From a virus (lineage: Duplodnaviria; Heunggongvirae; Uroviricota; Caudoviricetes), in IMG/VR virus record IMGVR_UViG_2541047900_000007: a stretch of DNA of 33,326 nucleotides, one strand, 5' to 3'. Positions 4,393 to 29,484 of the stretch are shown one piece after another. Position 1 is the first letter of the stretch. Each line of letters opens with the position of its first letter. The translations under genes were made by a program, and so were the position numbers. The notes beneath the pieces are model-generated. The model did not search any database. It was given only the letters and a program-made list of their open reading frames with translations, and was not told where the DNA came from.

Positions 4393-5273
4393 ACACTCCT
4401 CGTCAGTATTCTGGCGGCCATTGCACTTAATCCCGGAGACATGCGGTTGAATGCTGTGCCGGCGGCGTTAAGCTGCCCGGAAACGGTATCCAGAGCACCT
4501 GCAATATTTCTTTTGTCCACACCACTCAGCGCAGACTGTGCCTGCTGTACATACGTGGCTGCTTCGCTGGCTGTTCTGGCCAGACTGATGGCATCGGGCA
4601 TGGATTCAGAGAGTGCGTTAAACGCCGGAACACTTTTCCCCAGAGCCCCGGAGATATTACCCAGTCCGCTCATCAGCCCCGGCACACGGGTCAGTGCGAC
4701 AACGGGGTTATCCTTCATTTTCTGTGTCACCCGAACGGCGCTGATAGTGGTCTGGAGTACAGACTGCGCCTGTTTCGCATAGTTGACGCCGTTGCGGATG
4801 AACTGCGCCACCCCTGAAGGTGAAGGAATGGCACCGGAGACCGCCCCGACACCCGGGAGCTTCGTGCGTATTGCCGGTGGTTGCAGAGGATTTTTCGGAT
4901 CACCGGTGTATTCCCGGAGAGACACGGTGGCACTGACAGCCAGCACGTTACCGGTGCTGTCTGTCTGCTCGCTGGTTGCGGTCACATCGGTAATCACGAA
5001 CCAGCCACGATAGTCACCGTTGCCGAAGACCAGCGCCAGTGCCTGATGGGCTTTCATGGCTGTTCGCAGTCTCGCCAGCTCCACATCGGGTACACAATAA
5101 TGCTGATGGAAAACCAGAGTTATCTGGATTTCGTCCAGCCTGTCGCCGACGAACTGCAGGCCAGGCTTACCCCCGATGCGGGCATGCTCCGCATAATCGA
5201 CGCCGAACGTGGCCTCGAAGCCGTCCCAGTAGGTAATCAGCTCAAACTCAATATCACCCAGTACGGCAAACAT
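4389..5273 (-). CDS. tail protein with gpU-like N-terminal domain (Mu N / DNA circulation protein family)
   Basis: 294-aa ORF immediately downstream of tape measure; N-terminal pattern IGGKPGLQFVGD...GWFVI resembles gpU/DNA-circulation N-domain. Confidence 0.5.
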   Translation of the reverse strand: MFAVLGDIEFELITYWDGFEATFGVDYAEHARIGGKPGLQFVGDRLDEIQITLVFHQHYCVPDVELARLRTAMKAHQALALVFGNGDYRGWFVITDVTATSEQTDSTGNVLAVSATVSLREYTGDPKNPLQPPAIRTKLPGVGAVSGAIPSPSGVAQFIRNGVNYAKQAQSVLQTTISAVRVTQKMKDNPVVALTRVPGLMSGLGNISGALGKSVPAFNALSESMPDAISLARTASEAATYVQQAQSALSGVDKRNIAGALDTVSGQLNAAGTAFNRMSPGLSAMAARILTRSV

Positions 5274-5899
5274 CAGCGGTACTCCTTACGTTGTTTCTGA
5301 GCCAGCAGACGCTCCAGCATTTTTTCCAGCTCATGCAGGCTCATATTCAGGGCGCCAGTCAGTCCGGCAGGCGCTGTGGTTTCCCTGCCATTGAGGAAAA
5401 ACTGAGGATTAAAGCTGACCTGGATACCACCAGACGTTCCACCGCCGGTTGCAGCTGCACCACGGCCTGAATATCCGGCAGCCAGGATTTCAGGCGAGGG
5501 GATACGGGGAACATCCGGTGTCATCTCATTTGCCAGACGTTGCCCTGGTAAAATCGATGCCCGGGTGGAGAGCGGAATAGCGGGCATGGAAGACAAACTA
5601 TTGATTACGGCTCCGATCGCATTTTTAGCAGACGACATAAACCCATTGATATCGGGCAACGGCATACTGAAGCGAACACCTGAAGTGTTATCCCGTATTT
5701 CTGGCCCCTGAATGCTCACGGGCATTTTGGGGAGCAGTTCACTGGCCATTCGCTGCCCGGCCAGAGCTGCAAGCGGAGTGGTCCGCTGCAGGCCAATGGC
5801 GGCCCCCTGCGCGATATTGTCACCAAAGCCCATAAACACGCGGCTCGGCGAATGAATGCCCAGCTTTTCGCTGAACCAGCCACTGATGCTGTCACCCAT
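5273..5899 (-). CDS. tape measure protein C-terminal fragment (frame stays open upstream to about 6148 but has no start codon before ATG 5899)
   Basis: Begins MGDSISGWF, the same peptide that ends each upstream tape-measure repeat unit; same frame as the ancestral tape measure after removing a 145-bp partial repeat. Confidence 0.5.
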   Translation of the reverse strand: MGDSISGWFSEKLGIHSPSRVFMGFGDNIAQGAAIGLQRTTPLAALAGQRMASELLPKMPVSIQGPEIRDNTSGVRFSMPLPDINGFMSSAKNAIGAVINSLSSMPAIPLSTRASILPGQRLANEMTPDVPRIPSPEILAAGYSGRGAAATGGGTSGGIQVSFNPQFFLNGRETTAPAGLTGALNMSLHELEKMLERLLAQKQRKEYR

Positions 5900-6555
5900 T
5901 CCGGTTACACTGGATTTGAGCGACTCCCATTTGTTTTTGATACCGTTAATCAGACCGTCGACAAGATGGCCACCGAAGTCGGTGAACTTTGCCGGCAGAT
6001 CAACACCAAGATATTTCAGCGCAGCTGCAAAGGCTTTATAGAGCAGACCTGCCGGCGACCAGTTAATCAGCAGCTTACCAGTTCCCGCGATACCGCCGTT
6101 AAAGGCTTCCTGAATGTCAGCCCAGCACTGTTTAAACCAGCTACTGATGGCCGAAATATTTCAGCGCAGCCGCAAAGGCTTTATAGAGCAGGCCTGCCGG
6201 CGACCAGTTAATCAGCAACTTACCAGTTCCCGCGATACCGCCGTTAAAGGCTTCCTGAATGTCAGCCCAGCACTGTTTAAACCAGCTACTGATGCTGTCA
6301 CCCATTCCGGTTACACTGGATTTGAGCGACCCCCATTTGTTTTTGATACCGTTAATCAGACCGTCGATAAGATGGCCACCGAAGTCGGTGAACTTTGCCG
6401 GCAGAGCAACGCCGAAATATTTCAGCGCAGCCGCAAAGGCTTTATAGAGCAGGCCTGCCGGCGACCAGTTAATCAGCAACTTACCAATTCCCACAATGCC
6501 GCCGTTAAAGGCTTCCTGAATGTCTGCCCAGCGCTGTTTAAACCAGCCACTGACT
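5873..6555. repeat. imperfect tandem repeat inside the tape measure gene: 261-bp units at 5889-6149 and 6295-6555 with a 145-bp partial unit at 6150-6294
   Basis: Direct alignment of plus-strand text; the same ~87-aa peptide (SWFKQ.WADIQEAFNGG...KYFG...GMGDSIS) recurs in the translation. Confidence 0.85.
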
Positions 6556-8369
6556 GCCCCCCAGTTGCGGTAGATAAGGTAAGCTGCTGCCGCGACAGCG
6601 GTGATAACGAGACCGATGGGATTCATCATCAGCGCACGTCCAATCCAGAGAACAGCACGTCCGGCGAGCATAATTCCGCGAACCAGCCCCCCGGAGAGCA
6701 CGCCACTCAGTGTTCTGGCTCCTTTGGCGACGGCGCTAAATCCGGTCACCAGCCAGCGGAGCTTACCGCCTTGCCCCAGTGCGAGCGACAGACGAAGCCA
6801 GTTGGCCCGAAGTAAAACAGCATTTTTCCAGACACTTACAAAGGGGGAAATAAGGAGATTCAGCCCCAGTTTGAGACCAACAGTCGCTATCTTAATCGCA
6901 AGGAGCGCACTGATGAGCTTAAAAGCCCCACTGACAAATTGCGGGTGAGTCGCTACCCAGTGTTTTGCCCCCTGAATGAGTGGAAGCAGTTCCTGAGTCA
7001 GAGAAATAAAAGATGGAGCTAATTGATCGCCCAGCGTAATTGCCAGATCACGACTGCTGACCATAAGTGCTTTAGTGGCTTCAAGGGGAGATTTCAGCCG
7101 CTGATCATAAGCACTGGCAAGCAAATCGTTATCCGCAGCCCTGAGAGCACCGGCACGGATCTCTCGATATCTGTCCATGTTGGCCAGCATCGGGCGGATA
7201 AATGCCATGACCTGCATATCCGCGAACATATCGCCCAGACCAAAGTTTTTCGCCAGAGCCTGAAGTGCCTCATCTCTTGCCGTATCATTCTTTATTTTCA
7301 TGGCTGATTTGAAGCCGGCCAGCGCTTCGGGGCTTTTGGCATTGAGGTAACGTTCTATAACACTCAACATCCCTTCAATCGGAGAGATCCCCGCAGCTTT
7401 ATAACTCGCAATAGATCCCTGCAAATCAATACCCAGATCAGCAAACTGTTTCTGAGTATCGCGGGCAAAAATTTTGGTAAGAAAGTTTTTAAAATTATTG
7501 GCTGCTTCGTCGGTGGAACCTGCACCGATTTTTGCTATCTGGAGACTGGCCCCGATTTCAGCAACAGCCTCTTTTCCACTGGCAATACCCGCCATCATTG
7601 GGGCCAGGGACTGCATCCACTTGACCTGATCCGGGATTTCAAATGACCCCTGGTCACCGGCATAAGCCATAATATTCTGAACGGCACCAAAATCTCTGGC
7701 CGCACCTTTCAGGGAGTTTTGCCAGACTGCGGCCACTTTTGCCCAGTCCTGAGCAGACGTGCGTGTTGCCGTTGCCGCGCGGGCAATATCCGGCATCAGA
7801 AAACCGATATCTGACACATTATCAATATTGTCGCTGATGAGTGAACCCACCGCCTCCTGCAGCTCATCCTGATACTGATTGTATTTAAGCGCCCAGCCTT
7901 TTATCTGTCCGGCAAGTGCATCCCGCGTTTTATTGTCATATTTTGCGGTGATCGACATATCAATCATTTTGTCCTGAAAAGACATGGACTGCTGAACGGC
8001 AGGGGAAACCGTATGATAAACAGTCTGTGCCATGCCATACGCTTCAATCCCCTGACCATACAGCGCCATGCGGTTAGCTTTCAGCGCATCACTGGTAGCG
8101 GATGCCGCTGACAGACGGCGCTGCTGGCGCTCAATTTGCTCCATGGTGCGGCTTACCCGCAGCAGCTCGCTGTTGAGATGCTGCATCCGGGAAGAACCCA
8201 GTTGACCATAACGTTCTGTTGCACGGGTTAAAGCGTTCTGACGTTCCTGCAGGCGGCGTGAGGTATCGCTCAGGGAATCAAGCGCACGGCGGGTACCGCT
8301 CATTGCAGAACGGAATGTGCTACCAATCATCCCGCCGATAACAACGCCGACTGAAAACTGTCCCGACAT
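6141..8369 (-). CDS. tail tape measure protein, N-terminal 742 aa (terminated by a frameshift at a repeat junction)
   Basis: Long ORF after the tail chaperone; GGAGGT ribosome-binding site before ATG 8369; coiled-coil and hydrophobic stretches typical of tape measure; ends HQ* exactly at the partial-repeat junction. Confidence 0.8.
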   Translation of the reverse strand: MSGQFSVGVVIGGMIGSTFRSAMSGTRRALDSLSDTSRRLQERQNALTRATERYGQLGSSRMQHLNSELLRVSRTMEQIERQQRRLSAASATSDALKANRMALYGQGIEAYGMAQTVYHTVSPAVQQSMSFQDKMIDMSITAKYDNKTRDALAGQIKGWALKYNQYQDELQEAVGSLISDNIDNVSDIGFLMPDIARAATATRTSAQDWAKVAAVWQNSLKGAARDFGAVQNIMAYAGDQGSFEIPDQVKWMQSLAPMMAGIASGKEAVAEIGASLQIAKIGAGSTDEAANNFKNFLTKIFARDTQKQFADLGIDLQGSIASYKAAGISPIEGMLSVIERYLNAKSPEALAGFKSAMKIKNDTARDEALQALAKNFGLGDMFADMQVMAFIRPMLANMDRYREIRAGALRAADNDLLASAYDQRLKSPLEATKALMVSSRDLAITLGDQLAPSFISLTQELLPLIQGAKHWVATHPQFVSGAFKLISALLAIKIATVGLKLGLNLLISPFVSVWKNAVLLRANWLRLSLALGQGGKLRWLVTGFSAVAKGARTLSGVLSGGLVRGIMLAGRAVLWIGRALMMNPIGLVITAVAAAAYLIYRNWGAVSGWFKQRWADIQEAFNGGIVGIGKLLINWSPAGLLYKAFAAALKYFGVALPAKFTDFGGHLIDGLINGIKNKWGSLKSSVTGMGDSISSWFKQCWADIQEAFNGGIAGTGKLLINWSPAGLLYKAFAAALKYFGHQ

Positions 8370-8444: not shown

Positions 8445-8862
8445 CTATGATTTGTCGCCGTACTCGCTTTTTATTTGCTCTTCAGCCTGCTCCAGCCACA
8501 TCTCCAGATCGTCAGTATCGAGGGCATCAATCTCCCCCGGCTGAAACCGGAACCATCTCGCCAGCAGCCCCTGCGCCTGCGTCAGCGCCCTGGTTGCTCT
8601 CACCCATCCCCGTGATGAGCTGAAATCGTTTCTGTAACTGCAGGTAATCAGCCAGATCCATATTGTCGAGATCTTCCGGGAGAAGACCAGTACTGCGGGC
8701 AATCAGCGGTTCGTCCCAGTCTGCCGGGTTTTTGCTGATTTTGCGCACCTGCTTCAGGTCTTTTACCGTCAGGCGTTTCAGTTCAACCAGCTCAATTCTG
8801 GTGCCTGCAGCAGTGGTGAAGGGATAAGACAATTTAAAAGTATCGGATGGGGTCTGTGACAT
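8445..8862 (-). CDS. predicted frameshift-extended chaperone (E+E'-like fusion; +1 or -2 shift near 8534-8540)
   Basis: Second ORF 8445-8702 overlaps the 3' end of the chaperone ORF in the +1 frame; G5 run CCGGGGGAG lies just before the chaperone stop; conserved chaperone/tape-measure frameshift arrangement. Confidence 0.4.
8527..8862 (-). CDS. tail assembly chaperone, P2 gpE-like
   Basis: 111-aa ORF between tube and tape measure genes; CAGGAG ribosome-binding site; gpE-like LTVKDLKQ...DLADYLQLQKRF pattern. Confidence 0.7.
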   Translation of the reverse strand: MSQTPSDTFKLSYPFTTAAGTRIELVELKRLTVKDLKQVRKISKNPADWDEPLIARSTGLLPEDLDNMDLADYLQLQKRFQLITGMGESNQGADAGAGAAGEMVPVSAGGD

Positions 8863-26537: not shown

Positions 26538-28307
26538 ATGAATGCTGCCCTGACTGAACGACTGGTTTATGTCGCCCGCGCGGCACGTGACGCGGGGCAT
26601 GGTAAACGCGGTGCAATATACGACGCTGCCTGTGCTGAACTTGGCATGTCCCGCGCCACTCTGCTGCGCAGGCTGAAGGAGGTCTCTGTGACTGATAAAC
26701 GCAAAAAACGCGCTGATGCCGGACGCAGCGCCCTGACCCGCGACGAAGCCGCGCTGATATCTGCCACACTGCGTGAGGCCACCCGCAAGAACGGTAAGCG
26801 CCTCTATTCCATCGCAGATGCAGTGGAAACCCTGCGGGCTAACGGCTTTATCACCGCAGGCAGAACAGATGAAACCACCGGTGAGTTTTTCCCGTTGTCT
26901 GAAGATGCCATCAGCCGTGCTCTGCGTAACTATGGCCTGCACCCGGAACAACTGGATGCTCCTGCACCGCATACCGAAGTGGCCAGTCTGCACCCCAATC
27001 ATGTCTGGCAGATTGACGCCTCACTCTGCACGCTTTACTACCTGAGCAATGGACATAAAGGGCTGCAGGTGATGGACAGCGCGAAGTTCTACAAGAACAA
27101 GCCCGCTAACCTTGCCCGTATCGCCAGTGACCGCGTGTGGAGTTACGAGATTACCGACCATGCCAGCGGCTGGATTTACGTTGAGTATGTGACGGGCGCG
27201 GAATCAGGTGAGAACCTGTGTTCTGTGCTTATCAACGCCATGCAGGAGCGTGGCGGCGCAGACGTGCTGCACGGCGTGCCAAAAATACTCTATCTCGACC
27301 CCGGCTCGGCAAACACCGCGGGTATGACGAAAAACATGTGCCGCTCACTGGGCATCGACCTGATAGCGCACAAGCCGCATAACGCCCGCGCCACCGGACA
27401 GGTGGAAAAGGCGCGAGACATTATCGAACGCAAGCTGGAGCCGGGTCTGAAGTTCCGGCCGGTTCACAGTCTGGAAGAACTCAACGCGCTGGCCGCGAAA
27501 TGGCGCAGCCACTTTAACGCCACGGCTGTTCACAGCCGCCACGGTAAAACCCGCACGGATATCTGGCTGAAGATTACTGCTGAGCAGCTGAAAAAAGCGC
27601 CTTCCGTTGAGGTATGTCATGAACTGGCTGTGGCGGCACCAGAACTCCGCAAAGTCACGCCAAAACTTCGTGTCTCGTTCCGGGGCACTGAATTTGACGT
27701 ATCAACGGTACCGGGCGTACTGGTTGGTGAAAAACTGATGATTACCCGTAACCCATGGCGCAGCGATGTGGCACAGGTGGTTCTGACCGGTGAGGACGGC
27801 CACGAGACGTTCTTCCTGGTCGAAGAGGTCAGAAAGAACGAGTTTGGCTTTGCTGAAGGCGCGGCGGTATTTGGCGAAAGTTACAAAGCCCTGCCGGAAA
27901 CCCCGGCACAGATGGCGGCAAAAGAAACCGAAGCGCTGGTTACCGGTACAGACAACGCCGCAGATGCAGCCGCCGCACGCAAGGCGAAGGCGCTGCCGTT
28001 CGGCGGGCGGCTTGACCCGTATAAACATATCGACGACACCACACTTCCGGCCTATATGCCGAAGCGTGGTCAGGCCTCTGACGTACGCGGGCCGCGCACT
28101 GAACAACGTCCCATGACTCATGTGGAGGCCGCGAAAGCCCTGCGCGATAAGTTCAGCGCCGACGGCCTTACCTGGACGCCGGAACATTACCGCCAGTTAA
28201 CGGCACAGTACCCGGACGGCGTACCGGAAGCCGCACTGGATGAAGTCATGGCCACGCTGACCACACCGGCCAGCAGCAGTGTTATCAGCATTGTTAACGG
28301 CAACTGA
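26538..28307 (+). CDS. DDE transposase, MuA-like (transposable-phage transposase A)
   Basis: 589-aa ORF with N-terminal HTH and integrase-core-like region (HVWQIDASL...LYLDPGSANT); followed by an AAA+ B-like gene; GGAGG ribosome-binding site. Confidence 0.8.
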   Translation: MNAALTERLVYVARAARDAGHGKRGAIYDAACAELGMSRATLLRRLKEVSVTDKRKKRADAGRSALTRDEAALISATLREATRKNGKRLYSIADAVETLRANGFITAGRTDETTGEFFPLSEDAISRALRNYGLHPEQLDAPAPHTEVASLHPNHVWQIDASLCTLYYLSNGHKGLQVMDSAKFYKNKPANLARIASDRVWSYEITDHASGWIYVEYVTGAESGENLCSVLINAMQERGGADVLHGVPKILYLDPGSANTAGMTKNMCRSLGIDLIAHKPHNARATGQVEKARDIIERKLEPGLKFRPVHSLEELNALAAKWRSHFNATAVHSRHGKTRTDIWLKITAEQLKKAPSVEVCHELAVAAPELRKVTPKLRVSFRGTEFDVSTVPGVLVGEKLMITRNPWRSDVAQVVLTGEDGHETFFLVEEVRKNEFGFAEGAAVFGESYKALPETPAQMAAKETEALVTGTDNAADAAAARKAKALPFGGRLDPYKHIDDTTLPAYMPKRGQASDVRGPRTEQRPMTHVEAAKALRDKFSADGLTWTPEHYRQLTAQYPDGVPEAALDEVMATLTTPASSSVISIVNGN

Positions 28308-28317
28308 GGAGGGAAAC

Positions 28318-29484
28318 ATGCTGGTACTGAAGCAGCAACTGAAAGAGGCCCGTATTCCACAGGCGGTGGTGGCGAGAGCTGTCGATGTTTCTGAGGCCAC
28401 GCTGGCCCAGATTGTGAATCATAACGCGTGGCCCCGCACCAGCCCCGGAGAAGTGCGCCGGCGTCTTGCGTCCTGGCTGGAAAGTCAGGGGATTGATACA
28501 ACGAAGAGTTTTGATGCTGTACAGGGCGCGGCCACGCCCCGTACAGCGGGTACCACAGATAAAACGAGCCTCAGTGAGGAAGAGAATATGTTACTCAAAA
28601 AACAGGTGTTATTTCCAGCAACCAAAAAAGCGTTTGGTCTTTTCCGTGACCCGTTCGCCGACGAAGCCATGCAGGGTTCTGATGATGTGTTCACCACCCC
28701 GGACATTCGCTACGTGCGTGAGGCGTTGTACCAGACAGCCCGTCATGGTGGGTTTATGGCCGTCATCGGTGAGTCCGGTGCGGGTAAATCCACGCTGCGC
28801 CGCGACCTGACTGAACGTATCAACCGCGAGAATGCGCCGGTAATTGTTATCGAGCCATACATCATCGCTATGGAAGACAACGATGTGAAAGGGAAAACCC
28901 TGAAGGCAGCAGCGATTGCCGAAGCCATTATCAGTACCATCGCACCACTGGAAAGCATCAGACGCAGTCAGGACGCCCGCTTTCGCCAGTTGCATCGCGT
29001 CCTGAAAGACAGCAGCCAGGCGGGGTTCAGCCACGTTCTGGTGATTGAGGAGGCCCACAGTCTGCCCATTCCGACACTGAAACACCTCAAACGCTTTTTT
29101 GAGCTGGAGTCCGGTTTCAAAAAACTGCTGTCCATCGTGCTGATTGGCCAGCCGGAACTGGCGACAAAACTGTCTGAACGCAATATGGAAGTCCGTGAAG
29201 TCGTTCAGCGCTGTGAGGTGGTCGAACTTCTGCCTCTGGACAATAACCTTGAAGAATTTCTGACGTTCAAACTGCAACGGGCCGGTAAACAACTGACGGA
29301 CATTATGGACGCCAGCGCAGTGGATGCCATACGTGCCCGCCTGAGCAATCCGGGAAGTCATCGTAAAAATATGGTCAGCCTGCTGTATCCGCTGGCCGTC
29401 AGTAACCTGGTGATAGCCGCCATGAATCTGGCCGCTGAAATCGGGGTTCCACAGGTCAATGCTGACGTTGTCAAAGGGGTTTAA
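28318..29484 (+). CDS. DNA transposition AAA+ ATPase, MuB-like
   Basis: Walker A GESGAGKST and Walker B-like VLVIEEAH; N-terminal HTH; start at ATG 28318 after GGAGGG, 10 nt past the transposase stop. Confidence 0.75.
   Translation: MLVLKQQLKEARIPQAVVARAVDVSEATLAQIVNHNAWPRTSPGEVRRRLASWLESQGIDTTKSFDAVQGAATPRTAGTTDKTSLSEEENMLLKKQVLFPATKKAFGLFRDPFADEAMQGSDDVFTTPDIRYVREALYQTARHGGFMAVIGESGAGKSTLRRDLTERINRENAPVIVIEPYIIAMEDNDVKGKTLKAAAIAEAIISTIAPLESIRRSQDARFRQLHRVLKDSSQAGFSHVLVIEEAHSLPIPTLKHLKRFFELESGFKKLLSIVLIGQPELATKLSERNMEVREVVQRCEVVELLPLDNNLEEFLTFKLQRAGKQLTDIMDASAVDAIRARLSNPGSHRKNMVSLLYPLAVSNLVIAAMNLAAEIGVPQVNADVVKGV

Follow-up and report, generated by a model that had tools for sequence, protein, structure and literature searches.

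The frameshift that splits the tape measure gene of this Escherichia coli prophage is, judging from sequence comparison and simulated assembly, an artifact of short-read assembly and not a mutation, a reading that we hold at a probability of about 0.9. Most likely the strain has an intact tape measure gene with three 87-aa units, corresponding to the 1070-aa allele WP_021551891.1, and more than three units are possible, since any number of middle units would give the same assembly graph. The support comes from the identity of all retained bases to the three-unit allele of other strains, the exact repeat within that allele, the exact reproduction of the window (the whole 33,326-nt stretch of DNA that was analyzed) at a k-mer length of 77, a junction seen in no other assembly searched, and the draft status of the source. 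The original prediction had offered a genuine lesion in a defective prophage, a repeat-associated assembly error, and a recent repeat expansion of the tail-length ruler as three options, and it is the second of these that the k = 77 signature, the unique junction, and the draft source favor.

The element is a Mu-like transposable prophage of E. coli. It carries Mu-type head genes (portal, Mu F), P2-type tail genes, and an early region with an rve transposase (26538-28307) and an AAA+ protein (28279-29484), and thereby resembles the BcepMu-like transposable prophages of Enterobacteria (Bcepmuvirus, PhiKM), which have the same Mu-type head, P2-type tail, rve transposase, and AAA+ partner. Among phage records, Escherichia phage PhiKM (genus Bcepmuvirus) is the closest, with 96.7% DNA identity over the tape measure region. 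As in BcepMu-like prophages, insertion sites vary between strains, and no difference from that group bears on the finding. The AVS0225 prophage (L001 27356-32824) adjoins a truncated irp2 (yersiniabactin synthetase), as if inserted there, and in the window's genome the prophage adjoins a PAS/GGDEF gene (L003 21815-22229); on these flanking sequences, the differing insertion sites would fit a transposable phage.

That the affected gene encodes the tape measure protein, as originally proposed, is borne out both by its domain content and by its neighbors. Its 742-aa product matches PF10145 (PhageMin_Tail) over residues 159 to 340 with 74.6 bits against a cut-off of 33.2 (Pfam), and the gene lies between the tail chaperone and the gpU/X/D genes. 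The tail assembly chaperone (PF10109; 8527..8862, minus strand) is directly upstream, a context that itself argues for this identity, and the sheath and tube genes are also upstream; a gpU-like tail protein (PF06995; 4389..5273, minus strand) is directly downstream, as are, further on, PF05489 and PF05954. The gene order is that of the P2/Mu type (sheath, tube, chaperone, tape measure, gpU, gpX, gpD, baseplate V/W/J/I), and the protein is like P2 gpT and Mu gp42 (PF10145) in domain, in length (∼900 to 1070 aa), and in gene order. Nothing essential differs from the P2/Mu tape measures, with the family member found here having one to three tandem 87-aa units. We note that a second open reading frame (8702..8445, minus strand) overlaps the chaperone frame (8862..8527) in a different frame and bridges the interval up to the tape measure gene, a pairing with the layout expected for a putative gpE/E' frameshift pair.

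As assembled, the tape measure gene is in two parts on the minus strand. The 5' part (8369..6141) consists of 742 codons followed by a TAG at 6143-6141, according to the open reading frame list (6141..8369, 742 aa) and its translation, and its product ends in KYFGHQ. The 3' part (5273..6160) lies in another frame owing to 116 missing nucleotides; this frame is open from 6160 to 5273, with TGA at 6163-6161 as the in-frame stop upstream and ATG at 5899 as its first start. The stop codon falls three codons past the junction described below. A 208-aa gene (5899..5273, listed as 5273..5899) was called separately in the source record, and this piece has no Pfam match and no domain of its own. The position of the TAG and the extent and first ATG of the downstream frame are thus as first reported.

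The lesion lies within a tandem array whose layout, two 261-bp units flanking a 145-bp partial unit, also matches what was originally described. In the direction of the gene, all on the minus strand, the array begins with unit A (6295..6555; 261 nt, 87 aa), continues with partial unit B (6150..6294; 145 nt), and ends with unit C (5889..6149; 261 nt). It measures 667 nt as assembled, against 783 nt for three whole units. At 6011-6294 a repeat finder (TRF) detects an array of period 145 with 97% matches. Units A and C match at 243 of 261 positions, and B matches A at 136 of 145 and C at 139 of 145. A feature absent from the original prediction is that B is a chimera: its positions 1 to 76 are identical to C and positions 70 to 145 to A, and by type it is C-like at positions 1 to 69 and A-like at positions 77 to 145. 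The junction (6149..6150, minus strand) reads TTCGGC followed directly by CATCAG, and the deposited sequence has no Ns there.

Comparison with related prophages, which had been suggested as a check, was run against 5,426 complete E. coli genomes, of which 638 matched the region. All homologues examined are single open reading frames of 896, 983, or 1070 aa, corresponding to alleles with one, two, or three units. The best matches, at 3056 bp, are 145 bp shorter than the query. The single frame of roughly 980 aa expected without the partial unit exists as the two-unit allele of AVS0225, which has one 983-aa frame and from which the window's gene differs only by a 145-nt insertion, the 756 other aligned bases being identical. 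One-unit alleles of 896 aa and three-unit alleles of 1070 aa (WP_021551891.1) occur in other genomes. A possible four-unit allele in AVS0575, which gave two matches to the chimera signature, was ruled out, its gene being 3213 bp and hence three units long. In AR_0015 (NZ_CP024862.1, L005 926-4138) an intact 1070-aa frame is annotated as two partial pseudogenes, apparently because the repeats misled the annotation.

Against the three-unit alleles of C237-04 and AR_0015, the window is identical at 1528 of 1528 retained bases and lacks 116 nt in one clean gap, which the alignment places at positions 146 to 261 of the middle unit. That middle unit is itself a chimera, with positions 1 to 76 from C and 77 to 261 from A, such as unequal crossing-over between A and C would give. 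Many complete genomes contain the 145-nt piece B, with 100% identity, at the beginning of this middle unit, and a chimera-specific 47-mer is found exactly in 60 of the 5,426. The window is therefore best described, from these alignments, as the three-unit allele minus 116 nt and not as a two-unit gene with a new partial unit. For the proposal of a recent repeat expansion this means that one part stands, in that an expanded three-unit allele does exist in the population, and the other does not, as the window carries that allele shortened by 116 nt.

The three-unit allele contains an exact 268-nt stretch repeated at a period of 261 nt, which we call R, and it is longer than the k-mer or read. 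The window retains a single full copy of R (6219..6486, minus strand; from position 70 of A to position 76 of B), and the second copy is reduced to its two 76-nt ends (6225-6150 and 6149-6074). Partial unit B is covered by unique 77-mers and corresponds to unitig U2, and the first base of C starts the first unique 77-mer of unitig U3. The breakpoints are precisely placed. To the left of the junction, the sequence continues for exactly 76 nt beyond the last position that distinguishes the middle unit from A; to its right, exactly 76 nt precede the first position that distinguishes C from the middle unit. When a de Bruijn graph of the three-unit allele was simulated, with R used once and U2 and U3 butt-joined, the window was reproduced exactly at K = 77 and at no other K from 15 to 199. 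A single parameter thus explains two independent end points; of the ∼307,000 deletions possible in the array, we estimate that only ∼131 would be compatible with a model of this kind at any K between 20 and 150. A value of K = 96 was rejected for the junction, where it does not reproduce the window, though it fits a neighboring contig end.

The junction also appears to be confined to this assembly. A junction-spanning 44-mer, able to seed only across the junction, had no match in the 5,426 complete E. coli genomes, and a junction 42-mer gave no exact hit in three further collections (viral, metagenome, and species-representative), in which a native control 42-mer matched 10 viral and 17 metagenome loci. 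The halves of a 91-nt junction query sit 116 nt apart in the genomes listed. Among complete genomes and product records the lesion is not common to related strains, and the exact 742-aa product is on record in one contig only, scaffold KE701760.1 of GCA_000460455.1, which is a draft. The same scaffold contains an 802-N gap in the 336-bp tandem repeats of the tail fiber gene (L003 18372-19173 of the source scaffold), beginning 2 nt beyond window position 1 and ∼6 kb from the tape measure array. If the fiber array is like that of AVS0225, the contig end at this gap (L001 23257) falls where the last unique 96-mer ends. A literature search on the strain and its assembly method returned no paper mentioning GCA_000460455 or KE701760.

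We propose that the exact 268-nt repeat at 261-nt spacing exceeded the span of the short reads or k-mers and would have given an assembly graph running from U1 to R, U2, R again, and U3. The assembler, or a gap-closing step, may then have placed R once and written U2 and U3 end to end without Ns. The loss would equal R minus its two 76-nt overlaps, or 116 nt, and with that loss the frame shifts. We infer from these patterns both that the junction lacks read support and that a program step of this kind lies behind the join. Several observations count against the artifact. A pure de Bruijn walk cannot yield an out-of-register junction, so that one must assume a separate step, of scaffolding or patching, in which nodes were joined without Ns. 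The boundary at 6150/6149 is that of a 77-mer whereas that at the neighboring contig end is that of a 96-mer, implying two lengths in one assembly, and the assembly used Ns at the fiber gap but none at 6150/6149. As a guess, reads of 101 nt with 25-nt seed anchors would also give the value of 76.

Repeat collapse and mis-joining in k-mer graph assemblies are well matched by the window, which shares with them an exact repeat longer than k, breakpoints at unique-k-mer boundaries for one k, a junction absent from the independent assemblies searched, and a nearby repeat failure in a gapped draft. It differs from the usual collapse, which loses whole units in frame or leaves Ns, in leaving a partial unit and no Ns, and so mimics a frameshift mutation. 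The same array is involved in two other public records. In the PhiKM record (PQ738613.1, L002 3032-5897) the tape measure gene is labeled "disrupted by sequencing gap" at this repeat, and the same 208-aa downstream piece is called as a gene. In the IMG/VR contig IMGVR_UViG_2740892433_000005 (L011 3287-5236) the array restarts from its beginning after a single "n" (∼4353), comprises ∼7.5 units, and splits the gene into 929 and 532 aa, as if two contig ends that overlap had been joined across a gap of 1 N. That the array breaks other public assemblies supports the artifact.

The best surviving alternative, which we nonetheless consider quite unlikely, is that a three-unit allele very recently underwent a genuine deletion of 116 bp in its middle unit, which would truncate the tape measure protein at 742 aa, abolish tails, and leave the prophage defective. 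The parent allele is real and common, prophage genes do decay, and the lack of Ns at the junction is what a real deletion would show. At each end point, however, the nearest base that discriminates the copies is exactly 76 nt away, a placement that no biological mechanism predicts, and the deletion falls wholly within the sole stretch beyond the resolution of short reads. In E. coli, spontaneous deletions usually have their ends at short direct repeats, and those in tandem arrays usually take out whole units. The junction has 0 nt of microhomology, which led us to reject slippage between short direct repeats; a two-jump route through GGC and CATC is possible, adds nothing, and is less economical. 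The lesion is in no other genome searched, and it is the only one in the prophage: over 23.4 kb, the window and the AVS0225 prophage differ by 6 mismatches and no other indel, with no other sign of decay. The suggestion that the gene is split because the prophage is defective is not supported. Were the junction real, it would represent a homology-independent deletion in an otherwise intact transposable prophage, yielding a tail-less defective element at its first inactivating step.

Less probable still is a genuine 145-bp partial tandem duplication into the two-unit, 983-aa allele, that is, a recent out-of-frame expansion of the ruler. The comparison with AVS0225, in which a 145-nt insertion is the sole difference, and the period-145 array reported by TRF both speak for such an event, but the period-145 copies are only 97% alike and the inserted piece, being a C/A chimera, is no simple copy of any 145-nt stretch of the two-unit allele; on these two grounds a simple tandem duplication was rejected. 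The identity of the insert to the start of an existing three-unit middle unit offers a simpler origin, and the 76/76 symmetry again stands against it. Least probable of all, and effectively refuted already by the absence of conservation, is a functional two-frame arrangement by programmed +1 frameshifting or the production of two proteins from the ruler gene: the stop soon after the junction and the long open downstream frame would suit it, but the arrangement occurs only in this assembly among homologues that are otherwise single frames, no slippery motif was seen at GGC CAT CAG TAG, and the 208-aa piece is without a domain of its own.

The artifact has had consequences in public data, where it gave two gene calls (742 and 208 aa) and where the prophage would be scored as defective. 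A repeat node that is butt-joined without Ns looks exactly like a frameshift mutation and calls for caution. The question asked here, whether an indel in a repeat has its two ends at an equal distance of k − 1 from the nearest copy-specific base, is usable elsewhere and could flag similar false pseudogenes.

With the junction read as an assembly artifact, the apparent frameshift is, on sequence grounds, very probably not a real feature, and the Mu-like prophage is an ordinary one. Lambda gpH length reportedly sets tail length. Tails extend by ∼0.15 nm per residue, and by this textbook figure, which is not derived from the phage studied here, each 87-aa unit would add ∼13 nm of tail. The window's family is like the lambda gpH type in varying tape measure length through repeats, with in-frame one-, two-, and three-unit alleles in near-identical prophages, and tandem repeats have been described as contributing to tape measure protein length (PMC13585406, citing Katsura & Hendrix 1984). 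The variation in copy number of the 87-aa unit, among prophages that are otherwise ∼99.97% identical, is real, and the underlying biology is known in kind: a ruler protein that carries one, two, or three copies of an 87-aa unit across the prophages of E. coli.
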